Below, one piece after another: positions 12,262 to 31,204 of a stretch of 32,000 bases of DNA. Both the position numbers and the translations under genes were made by a program. The notes under the pieces were generated by a model, which ran no database searches, was not told the origin of the DNA, and saw only the letters and a program-made list of their open reading frames with translations. Each line of letters starts with the position of its first letter. The stretch's first letter is position 1. The DNA comes from Methanopyrus kandleri AV19 (GTDB taxonomy: Archaea > JAADCQ01 > Methanopyri > Methanopyrales > Methanopyraceae): assembly GCF_000007185.1 (NCBI RefSeq), contig NC_003551.1, forward strand, positions 1,110,001-1,142,000, written 5' to 3'.

Positions 12262-12807
12262 GTGCACCCGAGTGAGTTGTTGACGAAGCCCAAGTGGCGG
12301 TTCCTCCGCGAGACCCTCGGGGGCGGGGTGAAGGCTCGACGGGCGCACGCGTTCCGATGGTTGACCCGCGCGTACCACCCGCTCCGATCGTACTACCTGT
12401 CGAGCCTGGCGACCGCGTTCACCGGCCTCTGCGTCGGACTACTGGCCGTCCCCCTGGCGACCCGCGCTCGACGGTGGAGGCCCGAGACGGTCGCCTTCGC
12501 GGCGATCGCCCTGATCGTGACGGTCTCGACACTGTGCTGGGAGGCGTTCCTGGGGTACCTAGCATCGTGCCAGTTCCTCGCTAGGGTGACGGAGGGGGAC
12601 GCTCACCTCGCCCTGAGCGAGTTCCGTACGTGGGGGATCACGGGCGTGGGTTACCTGCTCGCGGTGTACGCCGTCCTCGCCTCCCTCCTGGCGTGCGCAG
12701 CGTGGAGGAAGCTGGGCGGTCGAGCCTCGCTCCGCCTCGCCCCGCTCCTGGTGCTCCCGTTCCTAACCGGACTGTGGTTCATCCGACTCGGACTCGCGGT
12801 GGCGTGA
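12262..12807 (+). CDS. Small 4-TM membrane protein (the credible 3' part of the long ORF 11797..12807)
   Basis: From GTG 12262 (TTG 12277 and 12280 are alternatives) the product is 'VHPSELLTKPKWRFLRETL...' followed by four clear hydrophobic helices. The upstream 155 codons of the ORF are Gly/Arg/Pro low-complexity and look non-coding. The 3' end overlaps the convergent gene 12763..14079 by 45 nt. Confidence 0.5.
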   Translation: MHPSELLTKPKWRFLRETLGGGVKARRAHAFRWLTRAYHPLRSYYLSSLATAFTGLCVGLLAVPLATRARRWRPETVAFAAIALIVTVSTLCWEAFLGYLASCQFLARVTEGDAHLALSEFRTWGITGVGYLLAVYAVLASLLACAAWRKLGGRASLRLAPLLVLPFLTGLWFIRLGLAVA

Positions 12808-14079
12808 CGCGATCGGGTCACCATCCCTCGAGAGCCACTTCCCATACCACTTCCCATCGTAGGGATCGCGCCCCAGCACGCTCTCGTACACTCGACCCTC
12901 CCTCACAAGCCTCCAGCTGCGCAGGGCCGTGTCGAGATTGATGACAAACACCCCTAGGGCCGAGACGGGCGGGATCAGGAGGATCGCCGGGGCCAGGTAC
13001 CACCAGGTGTGGAGAAGTTTCAAGCTCGGCTTCACCCCGATCAGCTTCACCCACGCCGGCGTCACCAGACAGCACACACCGGTCCCGAGCATGCTGACGG
13101 CAACCTCGTAGTGCCTTAACACGTCAGTCAGGGAAAAGCGGCGGTTGAGGTACACGAGCTCGTTCCAGCCGGCTCGGTTGTTCACGACGGACCCCAACAG
13201 CCCGTCCACCTCCTCCGGCTCGGGGGACTCCTCCTTCTCCAAGCACAGGGCCGCGTACACCATTGAGAACTTCTCCCACCACCGAAGGAGGTGGAAGGCC
13301 TTCTCACGATCCTTCAGCAGTCCCTGAGCGTCGTGGAGTACGCACACACCTCGGGTCCTCAGGAAGAGGAAGCCGCAGTCCCGAACCTCCACCTTGCACG
13401 GACCGGGCCTGAAGTACCCGACCCGAATTCTCAAATTCGATGGCTGACCACCCGGCGCCTCCCCGTACCTAACCGGGTAGGAGCTGAGCTCCCGGAACCT
13501 CGAAACCTCCACCTCCCCATCCGTGATCAGCTCGGCCTCGCAGTACCCCAGTGAGAGCAGCGCGATGGAGAGCCTCCGCCGGTCGCCCCTCATCCGGGGG
13601 AATCCGATGAACCCGAGGGTGAGGGCGGCCGGCAGCGCGCTCGACACGGTAAGGCAAAGCATCAACGACGTCAGGGCAAACACGATGAACGACGGGCTAA
13701 ACCACTCCCGCCCGGTTAGGGGTAGGGACCAGACGACGAAAACCGGGAGTGTGGACGATACGAGCAGGGAGAAGAGAATGAGTTCTCCAACCTGAGCACG
13801 TGTGAACAACAGGCGGAACGAGGCCGTGCGACAACGAACGGTACACCGATCGTGAAACGTTACGTCGCGGGGCCCTGGAACCTCCTCACCCTGGAAGATC
13901 GCATCGCATATCCCGAAGGACAACCATACGCTTAAAGCGCACGATCCTATCGATACGGCAAGTACACTCAAGATTACAATTGAATCATATCCACAGATCG
14001 AACCGAGTACTACATAGGCCAAGAGAGAGACGTAACCCAAGCTCGCCAGTAACAGCTTAGATGATCTAGAGATACGCAT
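12763..14079 (-). CDS. LGYCE-domain membrane protein, paralog A
   Basis: 438 aa. It has N-terminal TM helices, then the conserved block 'LSLGYCEAELITDGEVEVSRFRELSSYPVRYG...NLRIRVGYFRPGPCKVEVRDCGFLFLRTRGVCVLHD...REKAFHLLRWWEKFSMVYAALCLEKEE', then two C-terminal TM helices. It is clearly homologous to 27775..28991 and 29876..31204. Confidence 0.8.
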   Translation of the reverse strand: MRISRSSKLLLASLGYVSLLAYVVLGSICGYDSIVILSVLAVSIGSCALSVWLSFGICDAIFQGEEVPGPRDVTFHDRCTVRCRTASFRLLFTRAQVGELILFSLLVSSTLPVFVVWSLPLTGREWFSPSFIVFALTSLMLCLTVSSALPAALTLGFIGFPRMRGDRRRLSIALLSLGYCEAELITDGEVEVSRFRELSSYPVRYGEAPGGQPSNLRIRVGYFRPGPCKVEVRDCGFLFLRTRGVCVLHDAQGLLKDREKAFHLLRWWEKFSMVYAALCLEKEESPEPEEVDGLLGSVVNNRAGWNELVYLNRRFSLTDVLRHYEVAVSMLGTGVCCLVTPAWVKLIGVKPSLKLLHTWWYLAPAILLIPPVSALGVFVINLDTALRSWRLVREGRVYESVLGRDPYDGKWYGKWLSRDGDPIASRHRESESDEPQSG

Positions 14080-14112
14080 CGTCGAAGAGCAGCCCCCAAG
14101 CCGGCGTTACGA

Positions 14113-14406
14113 CTAGTCAAAAAGGGACGAGTCAAGGTCATAGAGGGATGGCCACCTTAATGCGTACAGTGATAGTGCAGTGGTAACAATCACGTACGTT
14201 GCTTCATCGTACTCCTTTTTGATATACTTAGCAACCGCTCCTACAGTCTTAAATAGAGCTCCAATAACGACAAGTGCGGTTAAGATCCCCGTTACATTTA
14301 ATTGTAAAGGTGGCAAGCGGGGTGATACGTACGGCAATATCCACAGTGCAGTGGACCCTATGTTCATCAGGAGATCTCCGAAGGTAATAAGAGTGTCAGG
14401 ATCCAA
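14113..14406 (-). CDS. Small 3-TM membrane protein
   Basis: The 97-aa ORF in AT-rich DNA has hydrophobic segments 'GSTALWILPYV', 'VTGILTALVVIGALFKTVGAV' and 'YVIVTTALSLYAL'. It sits between the truncated giant-gene copy and paralog A on the same strand. Confidence 0.55.
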   Translation of the reverse strand: MDPDTLITFGDLLMNIGSTALWILPYVSPRLPPLQLNVTGILTALVVIGALFKTVGAVAKYIKKEYDEATYVIVTTALSLYALRWPSLYDLDSSLFD

Positions 14407-14450
14407 GCCCCTCTTCTTGCGGACATAATCCCAGAGATTGGCGGCATCAC

Positions 14451-15695
14451 TTATGCCGAGGGGATAGGCCCGCCGAAAGAGGTCACGTTCTCCTCGAAGA
14501 ATTTTTGGAACGCTTCACCTAGCGCTGATATTATGCTCCTCTTATCGTCTGGCTCTAGCGGTGATGCTGCGATCGCCCCGACGAACGTAATAAACACTGA
14601 GTACATTACTTGCGTTATTACGTAGTCAAAATACATTAAGGTGGTGACTCCTTTTTTACCTTTTGTATATACTTTCAGCGTTCCAGTCGTCGGGTCGTAT
14701 TCTGGTACTTCCCCTTTAGTCAACATCTGTATTGAAGACTCTTTGCTAGTTCTTCCGTATGGTTTTACCTCCAATTCCTTTAGCAGTCTCTCTAAGCCCA
14801 GCTTGATGTTGTCAGGCAGTAGTATCCACTCTTCCTCACCGTAATATGGCTCTCCGGTAACCTTAGAAATTACATAATTCTCTATAACCTGTGTTAGTAT
14901 CGAAGCCCTAGTGTTGAGCGCTCGTTGTGTCACCGGATCCGCGTAGAATTCAACCCCAAGTAGTACCGTAGGCGTGTCCAAAGAGAGTCCCAGTCGGACT
15001 TTATTATCATCCTATTTCTCGACCGTAACCTGTGCGACAATCACTCCGAGTAGAGCCCTAACTCAACTCGCTTTATAATCCTAACAGAGCTTGTTTATAG
15101 TTTAATTGTAATAATAAGCTTCGAGAATTAGTAGTAAGCTTGTTAGTACTATCAGGGCTAGTTTCTCATCCTATTTGACCTCGTCCTTGAGCCCAGCTAG
15201 TGCTTGGGCCCATTTGGTAAAGTCCTCTGGGGAGTACTCGAACCCGGGTGGTAGGCATAATACTACGAGGTAGAATTCACTCTCTAACTTAATAGTACGT
15301 AGTGCCTTCGGACCGTACTCCACGGTGATCTCGTTAACTGGTGGAGCACGCTTCCACTCCGGGGGTAGTACCGGATTCCTCAGATCGATGACGGAATACT
15401 CCAGGTCCCCTCGGGTCGTGTGGATTAGTAGTAGACTGGGCTCGGTGAGGTCGATCGCTTGGTCATCGAGCTTGACCCTCACCTTGAGCTCGCACAGTAA
15501 CTCGCTCTTACCCGGTTCCAACAGCGCGTGGTACTCCCTCCCCACTCGGTACGTTAGTCCTAGGAGCCAGACTCGGGCTCGCGGTGGTCGGTCCAAGAGG
15601 ACGAGCTTCTCGATCCTCTGACCGGGTGGTGCTTGGACCCTGAGGAGCCAAGCGCGCACTCTCTTATCATCTCATCTAGCTGCGCCAGCTAAGAC
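14451..15695 (-). pseudogene. Inverted, truncated, stop-interrupted copy of the 3' end of giant gene 20802..26363
   Basis: The minus-strand translation is colinear and in frame with residues encoded at about 25035-26075. For example, 'VRAWLLRVQAPPGQRIEKLVLLDRPPRARVWLLGLTYRVG...' matches 'VRAWFLKVQAPPGQRIKKLVLLDRPPRARAWLLGLTYRVG...', and 'LDTPTVLLGVEFYADPVTQRALNTRASILTQVIENYV' is almost identical. In-frame stops lie at 15672-74, 15171-73, 15102-04, 15081-83, 15063-65 and 15012-14. Two stop-free stretches remain: ORFs 15171..15659 and 14451..14981. The last 65 or so codons (14451 to about 14645) are unrelated to the giant-gene tail. Confidence 0.85.
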
Positions 15696-15913: not shown

Positions 15914-18900
15914 ATGTCCCGGTTGAGAGTAGCTTCAGTGATCATCTGGTTGCTGTGGATCTCCCCACCGGCCTCCGGGTACGTGTGCTGGAGTGTTCCC
16001 GTCGGGGAGTCCGTGACCTCGGTCGAATCATGTGGGGACGCGGCCGTACTGGTGACGAGTTCTAATCGCGTCCTGGTGGCCGAGCTCGACGCGTCGAGCG
16101 TCCGACTCTCGGAGGTCCTCAATTTCCACCTACCCAGTGGAACGAAAGTAGTGTCCGTGATGAGGAGCGGATTAGGACTCGTCTTCGACGCGGGCCGAAT
16201 CCTCGATGACGGCATCGAGGTCTATCGTGGGGTTCTTACACACGGGGATAGAGGATGGAGGGGCGAACTGGTTCGGACCGTAGCCAAGTTCGAGGAGATT
16301 TCCCAACGGGTCAAGTCCGGAGAGTGGCGAGTCCTCGAGGTCTCTAACCTGGCTTCCGACCGTACTGGCGGGCTGTACGCCGCCGCGCTGTTAGAATCCG
16401 TGGACGGGGATTTAATCGTAGAGGTTTGGAATTTACCGGAGAGGAGCGTGATCGCGGACTTCTCGGCGACTGAGGTGAGAAGACTGGCGATAGGGGACGA
16501 AGGCACGCTCTTAGTGGCGTGTGGAGATGGAGTCGCCGTCGTCGACGGTAGGAATGTACGGTTCGTTACCGTCCCCGGTGTCGTCATCGACATGGTGGGA
16601 AGGTGGGTTCTGTACGAGGATTGGCTAGGTTACGCGCTGGGGGAGGTTACGACTTCGGGGTTACGTGAGCTGGTGAGATTACCCGGGCCAGCGCATCGCG
16701 TGACCGTATGGTCGACGGGTGGGGATGCCTACATCCTAGCTTACGGTGGGAACATCGTCTACGTTGTGGACCCCGAGGATCGGACCGTAGTAACGGTGTT
16801 AGACTTACCCGGACGCGTGGAGTTCCTCGCCCCGCCTTTCGTCGTTTACTCCGGTAAAATCGGCGTCTTGTACCTCGCCAAGATTATGGTACAACTGGAA
16901 GAGGGCTTGTGTCCGGCGGTGAAAACGTGGTTCGTGTGGCTGGACTGGTGTGCCGTATACATCGTCGACAGGAAGGTACCTGCGATATACAAAGTAGTTG
17001 AAGTTCGAGACAAATTAGGCCCTAATTGGATTAAAACTAGGAGTGGAGGAGTGACCTTTTGGTACAAACGAGTCTTTTTAAAAAGAGTTTGGCCACGGCA
17101 CCCTACAGAACTTCATCTTGATGATATTGGTATCGTCGTAATAGGAGAACGTAATTCTAAGATACGAGTATACTGCTTAGATGAACGTACTGAGGAAGTA
17201 TTGAAGAATTTGCTTCGTTCGCCGGACGTATGCGATATACTCAATGTGTATCCTGGCTCTGCAGTCTTCATAGTAGATTTCAAATGGAGGGATCAAAGGA
17301 TACCGGCCTTCCGGTTTGTCAGGAAGTCCGGGTGGCTGGTCACGGGGTTCATCGATGAGGACGACGTCTGCCCGAACTCGGATTACGACGACGTCGTCTT
17401 GAGCGTCCCAATCTCACCCCTAACGGCCGCTCACTCGGGGATGCCGGTAATACCCTTACTCTACGGTAAGGACTGGGTATTACTATCGGCACTCCTTCCC
17501 AACTTCGACTGGTGCTGGGATAAAACGAGCGAGTTGAAAGTGTTCGTTAACGGTAAGGAGTCCGAGTTCTACGTGGTGGACTGGTCCAATAAGACCATTC
17601 GTGGTCCGTTCACGAAGTTAAAATTAAAAATTGGTAAAGATAAGCAGTTATTCATACTATTACGCGGCTTGTCCGAACCCGAATCTATCAGGATCGTTCT
17701 CAAGAGGCCTTTGGGACCCGTGTATGAGGGTTATACGGAATACGCCCCGCCTAAGGTCTCGATCTCCCGACCGTCCGCCCGTTTAGTCGAGTATAACGCG
17801 AAGGAAGACAAGGTCACGGTCGCAGTGAGCGCGGAAGTGAGCGTCCGAAACACCGTCATCAGGAGACTGACAATCGAAGTGTTCGACCTCTTCGGTAGGA
17901 CACTAACACGTAAAGTGATGGGGCCTCTACCGCCCGGAAAACACCATATCGAAAAACGACTGAGTTTCATGCCCCCCGAGCACGGCCCGCTCAAGATCAT
18001 CCTCCTCGCCGAGTACGACGGTGACCTGGTTATCGTGAGTGATCGTGAGTTCGTACTCCGGGCGGAGCCCGAGCGGGCGGAGCTAACCGTCTCTTACGAA
18101 CGACCCGGTAGACTCACCGCACGCGTACTGGACTACGGTCGGGATTGGGTCGAACTCCGCGTAGAATCCGAGGAACCCGGGAACCTCCACCTCGAGGACT
18201 CGAAGGGACGACCCGTACCCTACTACGTCCTCGAGGGTAACGAGCTCTCGGGACCGTACGACGGGGAACACCCGCTCGAGTTGGGCACGACACCCGTGAT
18301 CCTCATCCTACGGGACTTGAAACCCGGGGAGGCCTACCGGTTCAAGCTGATACGCGAGGGTAGGATCCCGACCGCGTTCGAGCTCGAGTGCGCCCTCCCC
18401 GAAGCCAACCTCGACGTCGAACTCCTGAGCGGTACCCTCGAGGGACGCTCTCTGACGTTGAAATTCTCAGTCCGGGGCTCCACCGTGAACTCGACGTTCA
18501 AGAGGTTGAACCTAGTCCTGCGAGAGGATGACCGAATCCTCTGGCGTGAGGAGGTCGACCTGGACAATACCACGTGGTTCGACCTACCCTTCGAGACCAC
18601 GGTCGAGGTGGGCGGTGACGAGGGCACCCTCACCCTCGAGGTCACCGCCCATTACGACCACGACACCGTCCTCCCGGAGGGTAACGAGTTCGAGGTTCGA
18701 GAGGCACCCGCGAGGCGGGTCCTGAGGATCGCGTACGGTCGCCCGCACGTCGAACTCGAGGACTACGGACTCAACTGGCTCCTACTCCGAATCCTCCCCT
18801 GGAGACCGGGCGACCTACTCGTACGGGTGAATGGGAAACCAGTAACGTACTATGTGAAACATGGAAACGAGTTCGAGAAACACTCCGAGGACGACCCGTA

Positions 18901-20821: not shown

Positions 20822-23800
20822 GCTCCTCCCCGTGGTCCTGTTCCTAGCCTTGGTATCGGTCGTGCCCGTGGGCGTTCAAGCCCAGTCGTTCAAAGTCTGG
20901 GTCGAGGTGGAACCCTCGGTCCACACGTTCCTCGGGGCCAGCGTGTACCTCGTGGATAACGAGCACAAGGCGTTATACTCCCTGGGCGAATACAGTACCG
21001 TGATGGAAAAGTCCAAACAGCAGACTCAACCGCGACCACTCTACCCGAAGGATCGGAGCGAACCCCTCGGAGAACTCGACCTCGACGCCCTCGGCGTCGC
21101 CGTCTCGTGCTGGTTCGGGGGCGTCGGTTGCTCGGACGATCGGACCATGCGAACCCTCCTCCAGGTACTCGAGATGGACGACGAGGTCCGCGCGCGAGTC
21201 CTCGGGAACGTCTGCCCCACTCTAACCATGTTCGGGAACGTGCCCGTGCACGTGACCGAGTGTCGCGTCGAGAGGACCGAGAACACACTCACCTTCAAAT
21301 TCACCCACTACGGGATCACCGTCAGGATCGTCAAGAGCGAGCTCAAGGTGCAAGTCACCGACTACGGGAGGGACTGGTTACTACTCCACGTCGAACCACC
21401 CTCGAGCGGGAAGCTCTCGATCGAGGAGAACGGTGAGACACTGGCCTTCCACACGCTGACCTCCGACGGGACCCTCTCCGGACCGTACACCGTGCTCGAG
21501 GTGGAGGAAGGCCGCCCCCTCGATCTAGTCGTTAAGGACCTCGAGCCCGGTGAGAAGAGCGCCCTCGATGTAGTCCTTGAGGACGACCTGGGCATCACGG
21601 TCAGGAAACGCGTCGAGTACGCGCTACCACTGGTGAACATCGAGAGCCTCACCGTGGAACCGGGTAACCCGCTCAGAGTGAAGCTCAGGCTGAGCGTGAA
21701 GAACACGATGGTTAAGAGGATCACCGTACGAGTCGTGGACTGCACTACCGGCGGGGTGCTCACCGAGCGGGCGTTCGACGTCGGATTGTCCGAGGGCGAG
21801 CACGAGCTCGAGTACTCGATAGAAACCCCGAACACCACGGACCCGCTCGCCGTGTTCGCCGCGATCGAGTACGATCACGGTACCACGCTGGAGGGCGAGA
21901 AGTTCGAGCCCGTAGAAACCCCCGCGCAGGACTTCACCACGATCGTACCCTCGACAGGCACGCCCGAGGTCATGCTCGACGTCGAGACCCCGGAACGAGC
22001 CCATCTGGGACTACCCGTCGAGATGACGGTACACGTTCGGCTAGGCCGGATCCCACTCTCCACGGGAGAAATCCGAGTAACCACCGAGGACGGGAAAACC
22101 CTCGCCCGAACCACCGTCTCGAACGGCGAGGCGAGAATGCTCATCCTCCCCACTCACACTGGCGACGTGGAACTCCACATCGAGTACTACCTAGGCTCGA
22201 GGAAACTGGCCGAGAGGGAACTCACCCTCCACGTCTCGAACGAGTTCCACGGGTTCACCGCCGACATCGTGAGCCCGGGCAACCTGGGCTCCCTGGGCTA
22301 CGACCTCCGCGGGTCGTACATCCCCGAGAGGAAATACCCCGCGAAGGACGAGCCCATGTTGTACATCTACAGGACCTGGTGGGATGAATACTACCCGTTC
22401 CTCGTCCAACCCGCGGACCGCCCGAACGCCCTCCTCGCGAACGGCCTGAAGATCACCCTACCCGAACCCGCCGACACCGTGTACATGCTAACCCTACCAG
22501 TACGCGTCCACTACCCGATCAGGGTCACGATCGAGGACTCGAGCGGGGAGCGCGTGACCAGGAAACTCTGGTGGCTGAACTGGGACTGGCAATGGTGGTG
22601 GGACCACGGTTGGAGCGTGTACCACCTCAGGCTCACGGCCCGAGACCTCGGTCTAAAGGACATCACCGAACTCGAGTTCGACGTGCCGAACGGACTCCTC
22701 TGGATCCTCGCGCTGACCTACCGCTCGGGCGACGCGTACAAGGCCCTGATCGAACCCGGAAAGGGCGTGACCCTCTACCGCGAGCCCGGACCGGTCGAGA
22801 TCGAGCTCGAGGGCTGGCCCGCGGGCTCGGACCACGAGGTAGTCTGGAGGAAGGTCGGGGACGAGTGGATCCCCTTCTACCTGTGCCCGAAGGATCACCC
22901 AAACGCACTCCCCGCAGACCACCTACTCCTCCACATACCCCACGACGCCGACCGAGCCTACATCCTACTCTACGCGCGCGAGGACACGACCGCCGAGTAC
23001 GGTATCCTAACACTCAAGACCACCGTCCCGCTCGAACTCCCCTGGAAGTCGAACGTACCACGCTCCGACGACTTCGACCACCTGGCAGTCCTCGAGATCC
23101 CCTGCAAACCGAGCTCGCTAGCACGATCACGCGGTAGGGTGCTCCTCGTCAACGCCCCGAACGCGTACGTCATCGCCATCACCTACCACCTGGGGGACAA
23201 GTACGAGGCACACGCTCCAGACGGCGAGAAAATCACCCTCACGAGCAAGGACCTCCCACACTACCACAACGCGAACATCCTCCGAGAGACCATCGACTCC
23301 GAGGAGCACGGGTTACCACCCGAACTCTGGCACGAGGGCGTAGCCTACCACTGGCTCCCCGTACCCGGGACAGTACTCCACGTGCAAATCCCCTTCTACC
23401 TCGCGCCGAAGGACGCCGAGAACGCGATCAAGGTCGAGAACGACCTGAAGATCCAACTCCCCGAGGGGACCAAGGCCGTCTACCTCCTCTACATCGCGAC
23501 CGACCAACGCGACCCCAAGGACCGCCCCGCGAGCAAGTACCACCTCGAGATCACCCTCGACGACGGGCGGACCGTCCAAGCCATCGTACTACTACCCGAT
23601 TATCTAGCGCTCACTCGGGACCCGAGTACGGCCCTACTAGCCATGGACTACGCGCGCACGAACCCCACGGGCTTAATCCTCATCACCCAACGACCCGCCT
23701 GGCACCTCCCGGTACTACTCAAGGACGACCAACCCGAGGAGGCGCACGCGTACGCCTGGGTCCTAACGATCGCGACGGGCGAGGAGCACACGATCCGCGA

Positions 23801-26363
23801 GCTCACCCTCCACCCACCCGAGACCGGCCGACTCTACCTCCTGGCGATCACGGCACAGGCGAAGGACGCTAGACTATACGCCGTCCTCGGGCCGGGACAG
23901 TGGGTCGAGTTGAGCCCGCCCGGGGAGGTCTGGCACGGTCACACGGTGGACGTCGTCCACCCGGGTGAGACTCGAGAGCAGTTGCCGATCGAGGCATGGC
24001 ACCGGCGGGTCCTCGTCAAGACCCCGGACGAGGCGATACCCCTGCTCCTAGCCCGCCCGGACGGTCCGAACGCGACCCCGATCGCGACCCGAGAGTCGAC
24101 TCTTAACATAATCCTACCCAAACCCGCGGACGCCGTGTACTTGCTGTACCTAGCGACCGATTACGAGGAGGCGAGCACGCCGCCCACGCTACCCCTACTC
24201 GCCCTCCTCGACGATGGGAAACTAACCGGGACACTCGTCCGGATCGCTCCCGCGGATCGGAAGCCCTCGGACCTCCTACCCGCCCTCGCCTGGGCCGAAC
24301 CACTCGTCGAGGAGGGTGAGGACCTCACCGTCCGACAGGCACCCGTCATCACGTGGGATCGCGTGTATAAGCCCACGGGGACGGTAGTGCTCGAGGGTCG
24401 GACCGCCTGGCTGCTCGAGCTCAAGCCCGAGCACGGGAGGATCAAGGCCCTGACCTTCCTGCCCACCGACACGCGGCTCACGGTGTACCTCCTCGCCGTG
24501 ACCCTCCGCATTGGAGATTACTACTACGCGCTCGAGGGCGGGAAGACCATCCGCCCACTGGACGCGGGTGAGGCCGATACTACAATCGAGACCGCTTGGA
24601 AGCCCGAGCGCGCGCCCGAACTGCCGAGGACGTTCTCATGGCCCGGGTTCTCGGTGGACCCGGCCGAGAAACCCTACGATTATCGTCATCACGTGCGCGT
24701 GCTCGAGGACGAGGTCGTGATCACCCTCGGGGACGAGCCGGTACCGGTGCGGCTGACGGGTAGGCTGGCGCCCGTGGTACGCCGGGAGGTCGAACTACCC
24801 GAGCCCGCGGACGCGGTCTACCTGCTTTACCTGACCGGGCACGCTCCGTCCACTTCGCCGGCCCGACTCCTCGTCGAGTACGAGGACGGTGGCAGGGCGC
24901 TCGTCCTCGTCAATCTAGCGAGCGAGGTGGGATTGTACGAGAGTCCGGCTCGAACCGTGAGTGCGTGGGTTAGGCCCGTCCTCGGTTGGCACAACGGGGC
25001 GCCTACAGTGGTCCAACAGCCCGCGCTCGAGCTCGAACGCGATGATGGTAAGAGAGTACGCGCTTGGTTCCTCAAGGTCCAAGCACCACCCGGTCAGAGG
25101 ATCAAGAAGCTCGTCCTCCTAGACCGACCACCACGAGCCCGAGCCTGGCTCCTAGGACTAACGTACCGGGTTGGGAGTGAATACTACGCGCTGTTAGAAC
25201 CGGGTAAAGGCGAGTTATTGGACGAGCTCAAGGTGAGGGTTAAGCTCGGTGACCAGGCGATCGACCTCACCGAGCCTAGCCTATTGCTAATCCACACGAC
25301 CCGAGAAGACTTAGAATACTCGATCATCGACTTGAGAAACCCGGTATTACCCCCGGAGTGGAAGCGAGCACCACCGGTTAGTGAGGTCACCGTGGAGTAC
25401 GGTCCTAGAATACTGCGCACTGTCAAGCTAGAAGGCGAGTCCTACCTAGCGGTATTATGCCTACCACCCGGGTTCGAGTACTCCCCAGAGGACTTTACCA
25501 AATGGGCCCAAGCACTAGCCGAGCTCAAGGATAGGGTTAAACAAGATGAGAAAGATGAGAAATTAGCCCTAGTAGTGCTAACGAGCTCACTACCGATCCT
25601 CGAAGCTTATTACTACGATCAGGTGATAAGCAAGCTCTGTGAGGATTACAAGGCGAGTTGGGTTAGGATATTACCCGGTGTGATCATCGCGCAGGTTACG
25701 ATCGAGAAACGGAGTGATAACAAAGTCCGACTGGGACTCTCCCTGGACACGCCTACCGTCCTACTCGGGGTTGAATTTTACGCGGACCCGGTGACACAAC
25801 GAGCACTCAACACTAGGGCTTCGATACTAACACAAGTCATTGAGAACTATGTAGTTTCCAAAATCACCGGAGAACCGTACTATAGTGAGGAAGAATGGGC
25901 TTTATTACCTGATAATGTTAGACAAGATTTGGAGAAAATACTGAAGGAGCTAGGAGTAGAACCACACGGGGAGACTAACAAACAATCCTCAATACAAGAA
26001 CTGATAGAAGGAGAAATACCAGAATACAACCCAACAACAGGAACGATAGAAATAGAGGTAGAAAAGAAGAAAGGAGTAGCAGGTGTTGCGTTATGGTTGA
26101 TATCTACGTGGCTTTCCTTAATCGATGTCGCTTCAAGTCCTCCTCATGAGTGGTGGGAATGGTTCCTTTTAGGTTTAAGTATGGGGGTTATTGGTTGGCT
26201 TGGAACAATCCATATTGGATTTGCAATTATTTCAATTGGGATTTCTATATTCATCATATGGTACGAATATCGCGAATACGGTTCTACTCCATCCCCGTTT
26301 GGATGGGCTAGTTTAGCAATATCCATCGGGTCGACTATTAAGGATATCATGAAGATGTTATAA
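20802..26363 (+). CDS. Giant secreted surface protein 2 (1853 aa) with a multi-TM C-terminus
   Basis: One uninterrupted 5.6-kb ORF. GTG 20802 (or GTG 20814) overlaps the stop of giant gene 1 (20819-20821). The signal peptide is 'RLLPVVLFLALVSVVPVGVQAQS'. It carries one module of the giant-1 type, then five tandem modules of a second type. The AT-rich 3' end encodes 3-4 TM helices ('VALWLISTWLSLI', 'WFLLGLSMGVIGWLGTIHIGFAIISIGISIFIIW'). Confidence 0.9.
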   Translation: MGRAVSRLLPVVLFLALVSVVPVGVQAQSFKVWVEVEPSVHTFLGASVYLVDNEHKALYSLGEYSTVMEKSKQQTQPRPLYPKDRSEPLGELDLDALGVAVSCWFGGVGCSDDRTMRTLLQVLEMDDEVRARVLGNVCPTLTMFGNVPVHVTECRVERTENTLTFKFTHYGITVRIVKSELKVQVTDYGRDWLLLHVEPPSSGKLSIEENGETLAFHTLTSDGTLSGPYTVLEVEEGRPLDLVVKDLEPGEKSALDVVLEDDLGITVRKRVEYALPLVNIESLTVEPGNPLRVKLRLSVKNTMVKRITVRVVDCTTGGVLTERAFDVGLSEGEHELEYSIETPNTTDPLAVFAAIEYDHGTTLEGEKFEPVETPAQDFTTIVPSTGTPEVMLDVETPERAHLGLPVEMTVHVRLGRIPLSTGEIRVTTEDGKTLARTTVSNGEARMLILPTHTGDVELHIEYYLGSRKLAERELTLHVSNEFHGFTADIVSPGNLGSLGYDLRGSYIPERKYPAKDEPMLYIYRTWWDEYYPFLVQPADRPNALLANGLKITLPEPADTVYMLTLPVRVHYPIRVTIEDSSGERVTRKLWWLNWDWQWWWDHGWSVYHLRLTARDLGLKDITELEFDVPNGLLWILALTYRSGDAYKALIEPGKGVTLYREPGPVEIELEGWPAGSDHEVVWRKVGDEWIPFYLCPKDHPNALPADHLLLHIPHDADRAYILLYAREDTTAEYGILTLKTTVPLELPWKSNVPRSDDFDHLAVLEIPCKPSSLARSRGRVLLVNAPNAYVIAITYHLGDKYEAHAPDGEKITLTSKDLPHYHNANILRETIDSEEHGLPPELWHEGVAYHWLPVPGTVLHVQIPFYLAPKDAENAIKVENDLKIQLPEGTKAVYLLYIATDQRDPKDRPASKYHLEITLDDGRTVQAIVLLPDYLALTRDPSTALLAMDYARTNPTGLILITQRPAWHLPVLLKDDQPEEAHAYAWVLTIATGEEHTIRELTLHPPETGRLYLLAITAQAKDARLYAVLGPGQWVELSPPGEVWHGHTVDVVHPGETREQLPIEAWHRRVLVKTPDEAIPLLLARPDGPNATPIATRESTLNIILPKPADAVYLLYLATDYEEASTPPTLPLLALLDDGKLTGTLVRIAPADRKPSDLLPALAWAEPLVEEGEDLTVRQAPVITWDRVYKPTGTVVLEGRTAWLLELKPEHGRIKALTFLPTDTRLTVYLLAVTLRIGDYYYALEGGKTIRPLDAGEADTTIETAWKPERAPELPRTFSWPGFSVDPAEKPYDYRHHVRVLEDEVVITLGDEPVPVRLTGRLAPVVRREVELPEPADAVYLLYLTGHAPSTSPARLLVEYEDGGRALVLVNLASEVGLYESPARTVSAWVRPVLGWHNGAPTVVQQPALELERDDGKRVRAWFLKVQAPPGQRIKKLVLLDRPPRARAWLLGLTYRVGSEYYALLEPGKGELLDELKVRVKLGDQAIDLTEPSLLLIHTTREDLEYSIIDLRNPVLPPEWKRAPPVSEVTVEYGPRILRTVKLEGESYLAVLCLPPGFEYSPEDFTKWAQALAELKDRVKQDEKDEKLALVVLTSSLPILEAYYYDQVISKLCEDYKASWVRILPGVIIAQVTIEKRSDNKVRLGLSLDTPTVLLGVEFYADPVTQRALNTRASILTQVIENYVVSKITGEPYYSEEEWALLPDNVRQDLEKILKELGVEPHGETNKQSSIQELIEGEIPEYNPTTGTIEIEVEKKKGVAGVALWLISTWLSLIDVASSPPHEWWEWFLLGLSMGVIGWLGTIHIGFAIISIGISIFIIWYEYREYGSTPSPFGWASLAISIGSTIKDIMKML
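22250..25215 (+). repeat. Five tandem modules (about 160-225 aa each) of an unassigned repeat in giant protein 2
   Basis: Each module has 'W...PF.L.P.D.PNA....L.I.LP.PADAVYLLY' and ends in '.LLA(L/I)TY..GD.Y.AL..PG'. Landmarks are PADTVYMLTL (about 22470), HDADRAYILLY (about 22950), EGTKAVYLLY (about 23470), KPADAVYLLYL (about 24125) and EPADAVYLLYL (about 24805). Confidence 0.65.
25035..26075 (+). repeat. Right arm of the roughly 1-kb inverted duplication (partner about 14645-15695 on the minus strand)
   Basis: The nucleotide and protein alignment to the left copy was done by eye. Most codons are identical. One tract is perfectly identical for 68 nt (25452-25519 equals the reverse complement of 15196-15263). 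Confidence 0.85.
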
Positions 26364-27101
26364 ATGATATATTATAATGACGCCACTGGTAGTGCTTTGG
26401 GTGGTGTTCTCATGAGCGTTCGAACCGTGTCACTGCTCACGTTGTTGTTACTGATTGCACCGGTGGCAGCTGATATCCCACCTCACGCCTCCGAGAAGGA
26501 GCTGGAGGATCCGAACTGGTGGTGGGAACATCATCGGGGACCCGTTTGGGCGACCCGGTACCCGGAAGTCTGGAACAAGATCGTGCTCAAGTACGAGGAT
26601 CCGGAAGATCGGGAGAAGGTCTCGAAGTTAGGAGAGGCACTCCGTCATCCCCCGAGAGGGTTTGAGCTTTGGATATGGTTCATACTGGGGATGGCGTTAG
26701 TGCTACCGCCTGCCTCGCGAGTCGGATTTCTTAAGTTCTTTAAGTACAAGACGTGGGAGGCTCCTGAGTGGCTGATCCAATACTGTGGGACGATAATCCT
26801 GAGTATGGCCTACCTCGCGATCATCGCGATGGGTAGGGCTTACGTCCTCAATTGTTCCGTGTACTACGTGATGATCGGGAAGCTCAGTGAGGCTTACCGG
26901 ACGTTTTACCTATGGACGGCGTACGCCGAGCCGTTCCTTCTAGCATTCAACGCGGCTATACCGTTGATCCTAGTGTCCAAGCTCGAGTTGCCGTACCGTC
27001 GGCTTAAGGCGGGTATCCTGATCGCGTGGCTGGCGTCTCTGGTGCTGAACGTTCACATGCACTCCGAAAGTCTCACACTGTTATCGACCCTCGGGGGATG
27101 A
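26364..27101 (+). CDS. Signal-peptide 4-TM membrane protein with a Trp-rich ectodomain (paralog 1); likely start ATG 26412
   Basis: The ORF starts directly after the giant-gene stop. The in-frame ATG 26412 gives signal peptide 'MSVRTVSLLTLLLLIAPVAADIPP'. Next comes 'DPNWWWEHHRGPVWATRYPEVWNKIVLKYEDPEDREKVSKLGEAL', followed by four hydrophobic helices. Confidence 0.75.
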   Translation: MIYYNDATGSALGGVLMSVRTVSLLTLLLLIAPVAADIPPHASEKELEDPNWWWEHHRGPVWATRYPEVWNKIVLKYEDPEDREKVSKLGEALRHPPRGFELWIWFILGMALVLPPASRVGFLKFFKYKTWEAPEWLIQYCGTIILSMAYLAIIAMGRAYVLNCSVYYVMIGKLSEAYRTFYLWTAYAEPFLLAFNAAIPLILVSKLELPYRRLKAGILIAWLASLVLNVHMHSESLTLLSTLGG

Positions 27102-27104
27102 TGG

Positions 27105-27752
27105 TTGGGCCACTCGGTAGTTCTAGCACTATCGATCATCTTCGTCGTCGCGCTGTGCCCATGCCATGCGGGGTCGTGGAGCGTCGATCCCGAGATCGTC
27201 GAGCATCCGTGGTTGTGGAACCGGTACGTGGTCAGTAAGTACCACGATCCGGTCGAACGGTCGAAGGTGGTCGGTCTCCGAGAGGAGCTGCTGGATTACC
27301 GGAAGGCGCGCGTGACGGTGGTATTCCTGTGTACGGGCGTTTGGGTCATCGGGATCGCACTCCTACTGGTGAAGAACAGGAGGGCCCCCAAGGAAGCGTT
27401 AACGGAACACTTCTTCCGGTTGGCGTCCCCACTGGGCTTCGCCGGTCTCGCCATCGTTATAGCATCGATTGGGGAGTTCAACGCACTCCTCGCTCTGTCC
27501 AAGGGTGAGGGTTATCGGGTTGCGGTCGAGACGATCCGCGCGTACGGCGTGTACGGGCCCGCGGTGATCGCCCTATTAGCGATCGCCGTAATACTCGTGA
27601 CGGTATCCCGGCGTGCTCCGAAGGTCGACCTACCCTTCCTACCCAAGACGGGCTTACCCCTCAGCAGGGTATCGGCCATCATAGCCTGGACGTCGGTACT
27701 ACTCACGTCCGCGCTCATAATCTCGTACACCGTAGAACTGTTCTCAAGGTAG
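27105..27752 (+). CDS. Signal-peptide 4-TM membrane protein (paralog 2 of 26364..27101)
   Basis: TTG 27105 lies 5-6 nt after 'GGGGGAT'. The signal peptide is 'MGHSVVLALSIIFVVALCPCHAGS'. The segment 'VEHPWLWNRYVVSKYHDPVERSKVVGLREEL' aligns with the paralog-1 ectodomain, and the four-helix architecture is the same. Confidence 0.75.
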   Translation: MGHSVVLALSIIFVVALCPCHAGSWSVDPEIVEHPWLWNRYVVSKYHDPVERSKVVGLREELLDYRKARVTVVFLCTGVWVIGIALLLVKNRRAPKEALTEHFFRLASPLGFAGLAIVIASIGEFNALLALSKGEGYRVAVETIRAYGVYGPAVIALLAIAVILVTVSRRAPKVDLPFLPKTGLPLSRVSAIIAWTSVLLTSALIISYTVELFSR

Positions 27753-27774: not shown

Positions 27775-28991
27775 ATGACGACAGGGGGTGGGATCATCGG
27801 TGGTCGACGGGCATCCCGTCGGGTTAAGAGGCCGTGGGATTGGTACGAGAGGGCTAACTTAACGACGTACGTTATCGTCGGCATGATGTTCGCGATCCTG
27901 ATCGCGTGTAACTGGCGGGAATTCGCGCCTCTCACCCCTATGGCCGTGGGATTCTTCCTCGCGGCATTGTGGATAGTCGGTACTAGGACACACCCGAATC
28001 CAGGAGATCTGAGGCGTCTTGACTTGCGTACGGTCTATTATCGCACGGCCTCAGCCTGTCACCCGGACTGGTACTGACCGCGCTCGCGGTACCCGTGATC
28101 GTGGTCATAACCGCCGCGATATCACTCCAACCGAAGGCTTCTCACGCCACGCTCGCTGCTACCGAGTTCCTTATACTAATCCTCGCCCTCAGCGCCGTGA
28201 ACTACGTCCTCTTACCGTTGTTGGGTTTCGGTGCCGTCTGGGTCTTCAGGGTGGGAAAGAGGCTCTACCTGGTCTCCCTCGGGTACTGCGAGGGTGAGAC
28301 GATCCTCGAGCCGGGTGTGGAGGTCGAACTCTCGGGGTTCCAGGTCCTCGCGGAGTTCCCCCTGGAGTCGGAGTACCACGGTCGATTGTGGATCAGGATC
28401 GGGTACTTCCCACCGGGGATCCACTGGGTCGAGTTACCCGAGCGCGGTTTCTTCTTCCTCCGAACCCGGGGCGTGTGTGCGCTGCGGGACCCGTACCTGC
28501 CCCGGGACGACGAGGGAGCCCTCGAGATGGCCCGCTTCCTGGAGAAACTCTCGATGGTGTACGCGGCCGTGTGCTTAGAGGAAGGGGGCCCGAACCCCGG
28601 GCGCGCGCGGAAGATCATGAAACACGTGAAGAACAACTCCAGGTGGGGAACGACGGTGAGGTACTTCGGGGTCAAGGTGCCGCTCGGGCGGTTCACCACC
28701 AGTCAGTCGACCACCGTAACGGTGGCCGTATTGGTGGCCCTCTCGCTGGTGTCGGCACTCGCGAGGGGTGAGCCGCTGGGGCCGATGGGCGCACCGATCC
28801 TCGTCCTTTCCTGGCTGTTGGCATGCGTGCTGCTGGCCCTACCGGTGGCCTGGCGCAACAGGAGGGCGGTCAAGACCGGACGCTGGTACCGGGTGATCTT
28901 CGAGCGCCACCGCGTGGAAGAGGCTATCGACAAGGCACGGGACTGGAACTGGTTCCCCGACCTCGAGAGGGTCGACCCACTAGAGGATTGA
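27775..28991 (+). pseudogene. LGYCE-domain membrane protein, paralog B, split by a frame change near 28062-28066
   Basis: ORF 27775..28077 supplies the N-terminal two TM helices. Its 'RTVYYRTASACHP' aligns with 'RTLMWYPTASFDR' of paralog C. The protein continues in another frame, open from 28023 ('...GLVLTALAVPVIVVITAAISLQP...'), into ORF 28095..28991, which carries 'LVSLGYCEGETILEPGVEVELSGF...LWIRIGYFPPGIHWVELPERGFFFLRTRGVCALRD...LEKLSMVYAAVCLEE'. The joined length of about 405 aa matches paralogs A and C. Confidence 0.7.
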
Positions 28992-29195
28992 TCACGACCC
29001 GAGGCCCTCGTCTCGGCACAACTGGAGGGTCAAGACCCTGTTTGACCCCCTCCCTTCCCCCTCCGAAGCCCGAGGTCCCGCTTCGCAGACCCTTCGAGAG
29101 AGCCACAAACCAGCGGAGCCGGGGGCGCTCCACGCTACGGTGGAGGTGCCGGCGCGTGGCCGCACACCAGTTGTTCGATTTGAATTCCCTTTGCG

Positions 29196-29788
29196 GTGAG
29201 TATGGAGGGGTTCCGCTTGGGTCGGGTGGTGCGAGGACTCCTCATGGCGGCGTACGTCGGCCTCTCACTCGCGATAACCTGGCCGTTCGCGTGGCGCTTC
29301 TTTCGGTGGTGCGCCCCCTACGCCCCGGCCGCGTACACGGTGTCCGAGCTGGTGATGATGGTCGGGACGTGCGGGATTCTGCGGTCCGCGATCCCCTTGG
29401 CGGCGGTGGGTTGGGGCGACGTACTCAACGTCGCGGTAGTGGCGATCTGCGCGTCTTACATCCCCTTCTGCGTGTGCTGGATCGTCTTCCGCGTCTACCT
29501 GCACTGCTGCGGGACTGCGCTCCCCGACGGCGGTTCTCTCATGACCGTCCTCGGCGCGGTCCTGCTCTCGACCACCTCGTTCCAGGTCCTGTGGAGGCCC
29601 GAAGGGCGCTGCGGAAGCTGCACGGTGAGGTGGACGTCGGCCGGGACGTGAGGCTGTTCCTCGCGGGCTTCGCCGCCATGATGGTCACCGCGACGCTCGC
29701 GGCCGTCTACACGGTCCTCCACGCGCCGCCGCAACGGGTGGCGGGTCTGGCCGGTTCCGATATCGTGTGCATCCTCCGTCCCCGCTGA
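29196..29788 (+). CDS. Cys-rich multi-TM membrane protein; the 3' part is readable only in a second frame
   Basis: ORF 29196..29651 gives 'LLMAAYVGLSLAITWPFAW...VMMVGTCGILRSAIPLAAVGW...VAICASYIPFCVCWIVFRVYLHCC'. A further TM segment 'VRLFLAGFAAMMVTATLAAVYTVLHAP' runs in another frame to stop 29788. This is either a frameshift near 29590-29610 or a separate small ORF from GTG about 29603. Confidence 0.45.
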
Positions 29789-29875
29789 CGGATCCGCGGC
29801 CCCGAGCCCGCGCTCGGGTGGTACGGGCGGGCCTACCGGGCAGCCCTTACTACTCCTTTCCTTTCCGTATTCTAA

Positions 29876-31204
29876 TTGAAGCACCGGGTCCGCCGGTTCC
29901 CCGATCCCATGAGATCGAGGGTGACCGACGGCGGGGAAGCGGCGTTGCGCGGCCTAACGCGGTTCGCGGAGCGGAGACTTCGATGGTACAGGCGGGCCTA
30001 CTGGACGCTCTGCCCGGCCGTCGTCCTCTTCACGGGTTTGGGGTGGGAAGAGGCGGGGCTATTGCTGATGGGTTTCGCGGCCTTCGCGGGGGCGTTCTAC
30101 GGGATCTACCGGGAGGAAACTGAGGGAACGTTCCCCCGATCCGAGCACTCACGCCGGGTCGGTCGCACCCTGATGTGGTACCCCACCGCCTCGTTCGACC
30201 GCGTGCTGGGAGGCCTCACCCCGACTACCTTCCTGCCACTGTTTCCCGCCCTCCTCTACTTCATCACTTCGGTCGCCCGTCACCCCGACTTTCTCCACTC
30301 TCGAATCGCGGTAGCCCTCTTCTTCCTCGGCCCTCTGCCAGTCCTACTCTACCTGGTACGGTACGAGGTCGCTTCGGCCCTCGGTTGCGTCCGGGTCCTC
30401 CGCGTTCGCGGTTCCCGGGCCCTCCTCCTCTCCCTCGGGTACTGCGAGGCCGAGTTGGTTACGGATGGAAACGTGAAGGTTTCCGGGTTTCGTGAGCTCG
30501 GTTCTTACCCGGTCGAGTACGGGGGCTTACCCGGGGACCCGCCCGGGGACTTGAGGATCCGCGTTGGTTACTTCCCGCCGGGGAAGCACGAGGTCGAGGT
30601 CCGGGATTGTGACTTCCTCTTCCTCAGGACCCGGGGCGTGTGCATGCTCTACGACTCCCGTGGACTGCCGGAGGACCGGGAGGGGGCGTTCCACCTAGCC
30701 CGGTGGTGGGAGAAGTTCTCGATGGCGTACGCGGCCCTGTGCCTGAAGGAGGGCGGACCGCCGGATCCGGGTGAGGCCGAGGCCCTGGCCGCGGGAGCCG
30801 GTGACAACGCCCGCCGGGCCCTGACCGTGACCTACTTCGGGGTCAAGTTCCCGGTCGGGAAGCTGGTCGCGAGCGAGGAGGCCATGTTAGGGGTCGTCCT
30901 CGGGATGATCCCGATAGCGACCCTGGTGCGCGATCTCCTCCCGCCCGACCTGTCGCTGCTATCCGCACCGATCGCCGCACCGCTCGCCGGGGTACTCCTC
31001 GCGTTACCCATCGCCTGGCGCAACCGACGGGTGGTCAGGACCGGGCGGTGGTACCGTCTCCTACTCCGAGGGGATCATGTGGAGAAGCTGCTCCCCAGAC
31101 TGTTGGGGGAAGATTTGTGGTCCCGGCGGGGTGGGATGATCACGACCCTGTGGAAGGTGTTCGACGTCCTCGAGCGGGAGCGTCGACAACATCCACCGTA
31201 CTGA
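29876..31204 (+). CDS. LGYCE-domain membrane protein, paralog C
   Basis: 442 aa, or starting from ATG 29909. It has four N-terminal TM helices, then 'LLSLGYCEAELVTDGNVKVSGFRELGSYPVEYG...DLRIRVGYFPPGKHEVEVRDCDFLFLRTRGVCMLYD...REGAFHLARWWEKFSMAYAALCLKE'. Then come 'YFGVKFPVGKL', two TM helices and 'LALPIAWRNRRVVRTGRWYR', which is shared with paralog B. Confidence 0.8.
   Translation: MKHRVRRFPDPMRSRVTDGGEAALRGLTRFAERRLRWYRRAYWTLCPAVVLFTGLGWEEAGLLLMGFAAFAGAFYGIYREETEGTFPRSEHSRRVGRTLMWYPTASFDRVLGGLTPTTFLPLFPALLYFITSVARHPDFLHSRIAVALFFLGPLPVLLYLVRYEVASALGCVRVLRVRGSRALLLSLGYCEAELVTDGNVKVSGFRELGSYPVEYGGLPGDPPGDLRIRVGYFPPGKHEVEVRDCDFLFLRTRGVCMLYDSRGLPEDREGAFHLARWWEKFSMAYAALCLKEGGPPDPGEAEALAAGAGDNARRALTVTYFGVKFPVGKLVASEEAMLGVVLGMIPIATLVRDLLPPDLSLLSAPIAAPLAGVLLALPIAWRNRRVVRTGRWYRLLLRGDHVEKLLPRLLGEDLWSRRGGMITTLWKVFDVLERERRQHPPY

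Follow-up and report, generated by a model that had tools for sequence, protein, structure and literature searches.

Alternative C-termini carried as exchangeable cassettes are a feature of several described genetic systems. In the contact-dependent inhibition (CDI) and Rhs loci, organised as CdiA-CT/CdiI and Rhs-CT/RhsI, a large secreted protein has a conserved body and a motif that marks an abrupt switch to unrelated C-termini; tip-specific genes lie downstream, 5'-truncated orphan cassettes are homologous to the main gene, the genes are mosaic, and the base composition breaks at the cassette boundary. The G segment of phage Mu (S/U versus S'/U') and the R64 shufflon are invertible switches of C-terminal cassettes. 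Predicted contact-dependent conflict or recognition systems of archaea are, to our knowledge, almost entirely uncharacterised, and Methanopyrus kandleri, which can grow at temperatures as high as about 110-122 °C, has many genus-specific "MK" families without an assigned role. In the VARTIG system of the Thermococcales (Makarova et al. 2021), a 5' gene encodes a large secreted protein of the arCOG07710 type whose C-terminus, an Ig/CARDB domain, is hypervariable by recombination; variable sets of small, mostly transmembrane proteins follow downstream, pseudogene fragments are present, and the organisation is like that of polymorphic toxins, with no counterparts found by its authors outside the Thermococcales (PMC8416519). 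Here we describe a locus of M. kandleri AV19 in which two giant secreted proteins end in hydrophobic helices, one of them in a swappable tip, and in which genes of the MK-9 family of membrane proteins lie beside the giant tails. The analysed stretch of DNA, called the window, comprises 32,000 nucleotides (NC_003551.1, 1,110,001-1,142,000, forward strand), and all coordinates below are window positions unless a contig is named. The Methanopyrus contigs and loci with which it was compared are labelled L001-L026 (L001 being a contig of a related strain), and compared proteins are labelled P0001, P0045 and so forth.

The logic of this locus appears to be a so far undescribed variant of the polymorphic cassette systems. 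It shares with CDI and Rhs loci every feature listed above. It differs in that the variable region is a hydrophobic helix bundle and not a soluble enzyme, and in that no toxin, immunity or secretion-system domain is recognisable. As candidate partners it offers large polytopic proteins, all of one recurring family and with a conserved domain that is predicted to be cytoplasmic; its host, moreover, is archaeal and has a pseudomurein wall. With VARTIG it has in common a hyperthermophilic archaeal host and the gene organisation just described. However, the variable part of the Methanopyrus proteins is a hydrophobic tip that follows the motif PEYNPTTG rather than an Ig/CARDB domain, and the proteins have no sequence relation to VARTIG families. 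The giants gave no match to CARDB, and their only Ig-like match was to Big_3_5 (E 0.023; 15.7 bits versus a cutoff of 35.5; Pfam).

Results and Discussion

Giant proteins and their tips

The two giants belong to the MK-5 family. Their genes overlap by 20 nt, both encode the same kinds of repeated module, and both proteins end in hydrophobic helices, a single transmembrane helix in giant-1 and several in the tip of giant-2. The PEYNPTTG motif occupies residues 1740-1747 of giant-2 (nt 26019-26042), and the tip is encoded by nt ~26043-26360. The pre-tip module reads "RALNTRASILTQVIENY...EPYY.EEEW..LPD...KPHG.TNKQSSIQEL..G..PEYNPTTGT" across tails, its end being written PEYNPTTG...KKG. When tail variants were compared, the 60 residues before the motif were 42-90% identical and the tips after it 13-29% identical. 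Between giant-2 and P0025, identity is 0.90 before the motif and 0.20 in the tip; between L002 and L004, it is 0.87 and 0.17. We observed at least five tip types, mutually unrelated and each a hydrophobic set of several helices. Thus, a feature by which polymorphic toxins are recognised, a secreted conserved body with a sharp motif before a variable C-terminus, is present here. The giant of L001 is chimeric: its body resembles that of giant-1 (49% identity over 1461 residues), its tip is of the giant-2 type (82%), and the junction lies just before PEYNP.

The base composition of giant-2 changes along the same gene. The GC content at third codon positions (GC3) is 0.83 for residues 1-1400, 0.60 for residues 1401-1600, 0.43 for residues 1601-1800 and 0.37 for residues 1801-1853, and the drop starts near residue 1400, where the duplicated cassette described below begins. 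Related cassettes occur on contigs with a GC content of just 33-35% (L003, L004), and in L002 and L025 such low-GC cassettes join high-GC Methanopyrus DNA. No homologs of the low-GC cassettes were found outside Methanopyri, and none in IMG/VR. Cassette GC3 is 0.37-0.49, against ~0.83 in the giant-2 body. Elsewhere in the window, GC3 is 0.45-0.49 in the open reading frames (ORFs) E, J and L and dips to 0.58-0.60 in residues 200-600 of giant-1; mosaic stretches lie at 10281-11423, 14113-14981 and 16500-18000.

The tails had no match in Pfam, NCBIfam, PADLOC or PHROGs, and an AlphaFold2 model of the giant-2 tail built from a 5-sequence alignment was unusable, with a predicted local distance difference test score (pLDDT) of 43. 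At the C-terminus of giant-1 (20400-20821), the sequence "...HAPHTFREVEILKTRTRG" precedes the transmembrane helix and aligns with "PEYNPTTGTIEIEVEKKKG" of giant-2. Judged from this alignment, the end of giant-1 may be a degenerate form of the junction motif placed before a plain anchor.

An orphan tail cassette in the left arm

The left arm of the locus is an inverted, 5'-truncated and pseudogenised orphan tail cassette together with the MK-9 gene A. Its three ORFs K, J and L, of which K is annotated "MK-5 family", are pieces of one reading frame: the 649-residue protein P0045 of L024 runs through K, the linker, J and L in a single frame, and L024 is 94% identical to window positions 15671-13511 at the nucleotide level. 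An A-type MK-9 gene begins ~22 nt past the P0045 stop in L024. Relative to the P0045 ORF, the AV19 tail has five nonsense codons (15173, 15104, 15083, 15065 and 15014) and a 1-nt deletion at ~14454. L had been taken for a small transmembrane partner gene standing between the tail copy and A; since it is read through in P0045 as the C-terminal piece of the tail ORF, we rejected that assignment, and no separate small gene exists there. Recoding of the in-frame stops as selenocysteine or pyrrolysine was also rejected, the stops being a mixture of TAG, TAA and TGA. All five stops lie within 54 codons (15014-15173) of the ~520-codon alignment, which has no indel other than the 1-nt deletion. The AV19 tail differs from L024 by 99 transitions and 23 transversions, and two of the stops require two base changes each.

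The orphan tail is homologous to giant-2 from residue ~1413, and identity collapses at residue ~1746, at PEYNPTTG, after which the tip is a different one. In AV19 its 5' boundary abuts the region upstream of giant-1. The orphan of L016 has the same 5' boundary and another tip, and that of L024 is intact from residue ~1269 and adjoins a PIN gene. With the tail remnant of L025, these are four instances of a further hallmark of polymorphic toxin loci, 5'-truncated orphan cassettes with homology to the main gene. The PIN-domain gene (PF13470/PF01850) lies at 545-1105 of L024, on the minus strand and upstream of the 649-residue tail ORF; the AV19 context differs. Ratios of nonsynonymous to synonymous divergence (dN/dS) against giant-2 are 0.135 for K and 0.074 for J, values by which we judge that the homologous part of the orphan tail evolved under purifying selection. 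Coordinates of these and the other features are collected in Table 1.

Table 1. Features of the M. kandleri AV19 locus, in window coordinates (aa, amino acid residues; TM, transmembrane)
Feature	Position	Strand	Description
CRISPR array	1465-2521	+	Rfam CRISPR-DR11; 12 repeats of 36 nt each
DUF1678 protein	5624-6253	+	Pfam E 1e-101
D	9001-10284	-	membrane-protein gene overlapping E; separate transcription unit beyond H
E	10281-11423	-	membrane-protein gene overlapping D; separate transcription unit beyond H
H	12067..12807	+	multi-TM gene, convergent with A, overlaps the A 3' end by ~45 nt; dN/dS 0.52
LGYCE-A (A)	12763..14079	-	intact MK-9 gene, 438 aa; beta-sandwich domain ~13190-13556
Repeat pair, A/C domain regions	13198-13560 / 30425-30787		inverted, 74% complementary
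Orphan tail cassette	14113..15671	-	K 15171-15659, J 14451-14981 and L 14113-14406, pieces of one ORF
Inverted repeat, left arm	14647..15671		77-86% complementary to 25044-26077; abuts giant-1 upstream region
giant-1	15914..20821	+	1635 aa; signal-like N-terminus, repeated beta-rich modules, Pro-rich linker, single C-terminal TM helix
giant-2	20802..26363	+	1853 aa; signal peptide, repeated modules, pre-tip module, hydrophobic tip
Inverted repeat, right arm	25044..26077		inside giant-2 (aa ~1415-1758), ends about at PEYNPTTG
F	26364..27101	+	membrane protein, AAM02363.1; start codon directly after giant-2 stop
G	27105..27752	+	membrane protein, AAM02364.1; weak paralog of F (E 0.001)
LGYCE-B (B)	27775..28991	+	MK-9 gene, frameshift ~28044-28066; B1 27775-28077, B2 28095-28991
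I	29196..29651	+	small multi-TM protein; 85-89% identity in L001, 33-38% in L006; dN/dS 0.50
LGYCE-C (C)	29876..31204	+	intact MK-9 gene, mosaic; beta-sandwich plus helix domain ~30383-30805

Linkage of giant tails and MK-9 genes

A homolog of the giant tail adjoins an MK-9 gene in ~8-9 of ~11 informative loci (counted by hand), namely both arms of the window, L001, L002, L003/L004, L006, L016, L024 and L025/L026. The recurrent genetic link between giant tails and these membrane proteins that the original prediction had drawn from the window thus recurs across the compared loci. Each tip type is followed by a different gene, in what is a small sample. The giant-2-type tip (window, L001) is followed by F, G, the pseudogene B and I, and then by C in the window or by P0001 and P0003 in L001, and a giant-2-like tip that is 40% identical (L013) is followed by an F-like gene that is 47% identical. 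The tip of J (L024, window) precedes MK-9 gene A and then the convergent H; tip 3 (L002) precedes a P0017-like low-GC MK-9 gene, the A-type P0007 and H; tip 4 (L003/L004, GC 33-35%) precedes MK-9 P0011; and the tip of P0026 (L016) precedes a gene for a 275-residue protein with multiple transmembrane helices, MK-9 P0015 lying divergently upstream. Three tip types (J, 3 and 4) are therefore followed directly by three MK-9 subtypes (A-type, P0017-like and P0011). The tight gene spacing suggests co-transcription.

Two further loci show decay. L025 (1-11280) contains a tail remnant whose tip has been lost to an internal deletion, an intact MK-9 gene (P0031) and another MK-9 gene, all divergently upstream of a giant-1/giant-2 operon; its giants are just 40-52% identical to those of AV19 and belong to a divergent Methanopyrus lineage. 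L006 resembles a "graveyard": it contains an F-like gene and two I-like genes, along with one fragment of giant-2 and others of MK-9. MK-9 genes thus stay intact beside ruined tails in two cases, A in AV19, next to five stops and a frameshift, and P0031 in L025.

One account of these arrangements needs no functional coupling: MK-9 would have expanded by local duplication in a recombination-prone, decaying island, with linkage as a by-product. Many copies are pseudogenes or fragments, as this account would have it, and the GC content of the window is strongly mosaic, ranging over 0.42-0.72 in a genome of roughly 60%. A plasticity region has also been reported in Methanopyrus genomes (PMC5504354), L007 and L017 show MK-9 genes without tails in the contig DNA compared, and the MK-9 protein AAM02374.1 is encoded outside the window. 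On the other hand, MK-9 genes start almost directly after three tip types (L003/L004, L002 and L024), L025 repeats the combination of orphan tail and MK-9 genes divergently upstream despite the low identity of its giants, and dN/dS is below 1 in the intact MK-9 members. We consider a mere by-product rather unlikely.

The MK-9 copies of the window

Paralogy of A, B and C, as predicted originally, was confirmed by blastp: A and C are 46% identical over 254 residues (E 3e-57), B2 and C 41% over 289 residues (E 2.5e-56), and A and B2 41% over 174 residues (E 5e-26). Searching the six-frame translation of the window with a hidden Markov model (HMM) of the family matched exactly A, B and C, with B split across two frames. 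By exact look-up, A is AAM02359.1 and B2 is AAM02365.1, both annotated [quoted passage not shown]; the public gene model of A is shorter, at 300 residues versus 438 here. The label of this paralog family is therefore already public, and it has no domain model in Pfam or NCBIfam. In the public sources on MK-9 that we read, there was no topology, structure or link to giant tails. All three copies have four N-terminal hydrophobic helices, a soluble domain and two further helices, by hydropathy and the AlphaFold2 model.

The frame break that had been proposed for B was likewise borne out. A tblastn search with P0004 placed residues 3-88 in the frame of 27814-28065 and residues 81-371 in that of 28044-28919, and the L001 ortholog of B is in three pieces, its B1 and B2 parts in different frames by their coordinates and with at least one further break. 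B is probably a pseudogene or encodes an N-terminally truncated product. The dN/dS ratio is 0.69 for B2 and 0.49 for A (against P0007).

C is a mosaic gene. Its residues 31-300 match the P0001 type, with 77-90% identity, and from residue 301 to residue 442 it follows the P0003 type (50-83% identity, versus 0-43% to P0001). It is a recombinant of two paralog types that stand in tandem in L001 (P0001 and P0003, 8375-10821), the switch falling near residue 300, right after the conserved helix. One gene may have been lost in AV19 via unequal crossing-over, or one gained in L001. Across loci, MK-9 genes are often pseudogenised or fragmentary, and are themselves mosaic. A truncated AV19 member outside the window, AAM02374.1, has 221 residues, lacks the C-terminal transmembrane helices and lies nine accessions past B2; it clusters with P0013, one of the matches of the family HMM. 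The MK-9 cluster probably continues just past the right end of the window.

Range and signature of MK-9

MK-9 is restricted to Methanopyri/Methanopyrus. A word-indexed search of 5.8 billion clusters returned 8 proteins, and an HMM of nine members gave 19 matches at E <= 1e-3 among 1.84 billion protein representatives. Scanning 185,579 species genomes with the family alignment yielded two loci, both in metagenome-assembled genomes (one titled Methanopyri and one Methanobacteriota); the same scan with C alone as query yielded none. IMG/VR contained relatives of neither MK-9 nor the tail, and on that ground we rejected a viral origin. MK-9 gave nothing significant in Pfam, NCBIfam, PADLOC, PHROGs, the PDB searched by sequence, or Foldseek searches against the PDB and BFVD. 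Neither by sequence nor by structure did its domain match bacterial PH-like (bPH) families or PH-fold structures, and it corresponds to no known unrelated family in these collections.

Across an alignment of 14 sequences, nine residues never change, namely E193, L226, G231, Y232, F247, R251, T252, R253 and E279 (C numbering), and the signature is ExE...GY...FLRTRG...E(K/R)(F/L)SM, with FLRTRG as its core. The original prediction had singled out three invariant cysteine contexts. Its motifs LGYCE, FLRTRGVC and YAA(L/V)CL, along with IR(V/I)GYF.PG, do occur in all three window copies, but no cysteine position is invariant in the family: in the distant members of the alignment (P0010, P0011, P0015, P0017 and L002:771-2087), C190 is replaced by S, C256 by N and the third cysteine by G, R, Y or F. 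Given these replacements, and a domain predicted to be cytoplasmic, we rejected the cysteines as family-defining metal or disulfide sites.

AlphaFold2, run with the family alignment, modelled residues ~170-310 confidently (pLDDT 88-93). The model of this domain has eight beta-strands forming a beta-sandwich, followed by a long and then a short helix and by a beta-hairpin, with helical hydrophobic segments on either side. Stretches rich in lysine and arginine follow the N-terminus, TM2, TM4 ("RVLRVRGSR") and TM6 ("WRNRRVVRTGRWYR"). From the positive-inside rule applied to these stretches and from the hydropathy segments, MK-9 is predicted to have its N-terminus inside, six transmembrane helices and a cytoplasmic beta-sandwich domain. 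The side of the membrane on which the cysteine-bearing domain lies had been left undecided originally, and the distribution of charge against hydropathy predicts a cytoplasmic position. Mean pairwise identity is 41-45% in the domain plus helix and 13-20% in the transmembrane regions.

MK-9 as a candidate partner of the tips

Because MK-9 genes occupy the position of immunity genes for three tip types and their transmembrane bundles are hypervariable, we favour, tentatively, a reading of MK-9 proteins as cassette-linked, immunity-like membrane partners of the polymorphic tips; we regard it as possible, if short of probable. In the loci, the conserved giant body runs to PEYNPTTG and into a tip, and each tip type brings its own downstream membrane gene or genes. 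Under this reading, the variable transmembrane bundles of MK-9 would each act inside the membrane on a particular hydrophobic tip, by recognising or neutralising it, and a task shared by all members would fall to the conserved domain, predicted to be cytoplasmic. Where MK-9 genes form arrays, these would represent orphan partners that have built up over time, much as in the polymorphic toxin loci of bacteria. That MK-9 genes remain intact beside decayed tails is what would be expected of protective genes and would be unexpected of assembly factors.

Several observations count against immunity-like partners. Neither the tips nor MK-9 matched toxin, immunity or defence families in Pfam, NCBIfam, PADLOC or PHROGs, and the tips may be plain membrane anchors, giant-1 having a single transmembrane helix in that place. 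F and G, not an MK-9 gene, vary together with the giant-2-type tip, and the adjacent B is a pseudogene in two strains. The A-type MK-9 gene and H resemble a constant flank in L002 more than cassette content; the MK-9 gene of L016 is divergent from the tail instead of 3' of it; and L007 and L017 have MK-9 loci without a tail homolog within the contig DNA compared. Immunity proteins of the pure binding type would not usually have a cytoplasmic domain with a conserved polar signature, which hints at a common biochemical role. The predicted topology has the positive-inside rule as its sole basis, and the data come from one genus, mostly as short metagenomic contigs.

F and G bear on a second explanation, that the tips anchor the giants and that each anchor type has its own subunits, MK-9, F and G, which dock, insert or stabilise it within an envelope complex. 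The divergence of F follows that of the giant-2-type tip (L001, tip 82% and F 90%; L013, tip 40% and F 47%), and G is 96% identical in L001. This co-variation of F and tip, the operon-like tight spacing of giant-2, F, G and B, the presence of hydrophobic helices where giant-1 has a simple transmembrane anchor, and the recurrence of linkage across loci all accord with such a complex. We nevertheless disfavour the idea that MK-9 anchors, exports or assembles the tail beside it, because MK-9 persists beside ruined tails (the AV19 left arm and L025), because its domain is predicted to be cytoplasmic, and because the genes that vary with the giant-2 tip are F and G and not MK-9. In addition, several MK-9 paralogs occur per locus and some loci have no tail, and a buried anchor offers no obvious reason for polymorphism with a sharp recombination boundary. 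Envelope assembly is, in our view, unlikely. Of the functional link suggested originally, "such as anchoring, export or assembly", the recurrent linkage stands, and the survival of intact MK-9 genes next to destroyed tails speaks against the functions named.

The ratios of F, G, I and the MK-9 genes (dN/dS 0.3-0.8) are elevated, and the genes are mosaic, both of which would suit a third explanation, in which tip and partner would together make up a polymorphic module for identity or adhesion, serving self/non-self recognition or surface variation, with no toxin involved. Exchange of cassettes would then diversify cell-cell recognition or evade viruses, as proposed for VARTIG, Proteus Ids and Myxococcus TraA. 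VARTIG in particular offers a parallel, since there, too, the C-terminus of a large secreted protein varies, as do the transmembrane proteins encoded downstream (PMC8416519), and the reference list of that paper includes Schopf et al. 2008 on a bi-species biofilm of M. kandleri with Pyrococcus. Yet the variable part of the Methanopyrus giants is hydrophobic and probably embedded in the membrane, not exposed to another cell or a virus, and the extracellular bodies are better conserved than the tips. We think a recognition module quite unlikely, and retain immunity-like partnership as the reading that we tentatively prefer.

Mirrored gene order and inverted repeats

The mirrored gene order noted originally is present at the DNA level, in the inverted repeats of the tails (77-86% complementary) and of the A/C domain regions (74%). 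It had been explained by duplication of a single unit of tail, transmembrane partner and MK-9 gene. Three observations argue instead for modular shuffling of cassettes and disfavour one three-gene event: the middle genes are unrelated, L is part of the tail, and L002 has a breakpoint, its homology with the window starting at about the start of A, with another tail tip and another MK-9 gene upstream. The synonymous divergence (dS) of ~0.5-1.6 for the tail and ~1.0 for A-C does not decide whether the duplication was a single event. We interpret the mirrored order as one giant-2 cassette (tip, F, G, B, I and C), taken as expressed, and one dead orphan (K/J/L and A).

Between the repeats lie giant-1 with its upstream region and residues 1-1412 of giant-2. 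This is the geometry, and only the geometry, of an invertible switch. It is quite improbable, in our estimate, that the mirrored layout is functional as an archaeal recombinational switch of a giant C-terminus and its partner genes. If it were, inversion would rejoin the giant-2 body to the J tip and A, because the left repeat directly adjoins the giant operon on its upstream side, and the tip now in place would be left as the orphan, together with F and G. The locus resembles the Mu G segment and the shufflon in having alternative C-terminal cassettes, each with an accessory gene, mirrored and bounded by inverted repeats, and L025 has a similar divergent layout. It differs in that its repeats are ~1 kb long and 77-86% identical, as opposed to short crossover sites, in that the left cassette of AV19 is dead and the other orientation was not seen, and in the lack of a recombinase among the scanned ORFs. 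No contig among the compared loci joins the giant-2 body to the J tip, and neither a recombinase nor an invertase was found among the window ORFs scanned. The divergent layout of orphan tail and MK-9 genes in L025, with giants so distant in sequence, suggests that the arrangement is maintained. In AV19 such a switch would now be dead, as the left cassette is.

Neighbouring genes and the wider window

The AV19 records within AAM02356-AAM02365 cover D, E, A, K, F, G and B2 (exact look-up). H is called as a 246-residue protein in L019/L020, and the 336-residue ORF listed for its frame is probably an over-extension; H is conserved and a constant neighbour of the A-type genes, beside which it stands in L002, L009, L010 and L023 at 63-68% amino acid identity. 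In both F and G the first hydrophobic helix is followed by a stretch rich in Trp (PNWWWEHH and HPWLWNRY, respectively), and a 584-residue protein beside the MK-9 gene of L007 has the Trp-rich WWLEWKLRW before multiple transmembrane helices.

D and E share with MK-9 a layout in which a soluble part stands between transmembrane parts, and a short "G..KPG...IEVK" stretch that looks alike. From a similar topology and faintly similar "PG....EV(K/R)" strands, it had been suggested that they might be distant members of the family. The family HMM matched neither at E <= 10 (--max), and hhalign of MK-9 against D and E gave probabilities of 1.8% and 0.1%, E being an ORFan without homologs for a profile. 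We rejected their membership as unsupported.

A Pfam scan of selected window ORFs gave only an MFS transporter and DUF1678 above threshold, and no secretion or delivery machinery was found among these ORFs. A DUF1678 gene (L001, 18992-19538) and genes for Fae (formaldehyde-activating enzyme) also lie 3' of the MK-9 cluster of L001, and Fae occurs in L017 too; the island may sit in a conserved chromosomal neighbourhood marked by DUF1678 and Fae. No tRNA genes were found in the window. The spacers of the CRISPR array are unusually long and variable (49-72 nt, GC 0.33-0.68). Against the window and every fetched locus, they gave chance matches of 12-14 nt only, and no cas genes were recognised among the window ORFs scanned.

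Conclusions

With these comparisons, the MK-9 and MK-5 families gain a concrete context of polymorphic C-terminal cassettes, orphan cassettes and cassette-linked membrane partners. What would set this system apart is a hydrophobic, membrane-embedded variable region paired with a partner that has a conserved cytoplasmic beta-sandwich, both as predicted. If the reading of MK-9 as partner of the tips is true, Methanopyrus would harbour a second system, unrelated to VARTIG and built on the same logic, which would make such cassettes a convergent strategy in hyperthermophilic archaea.

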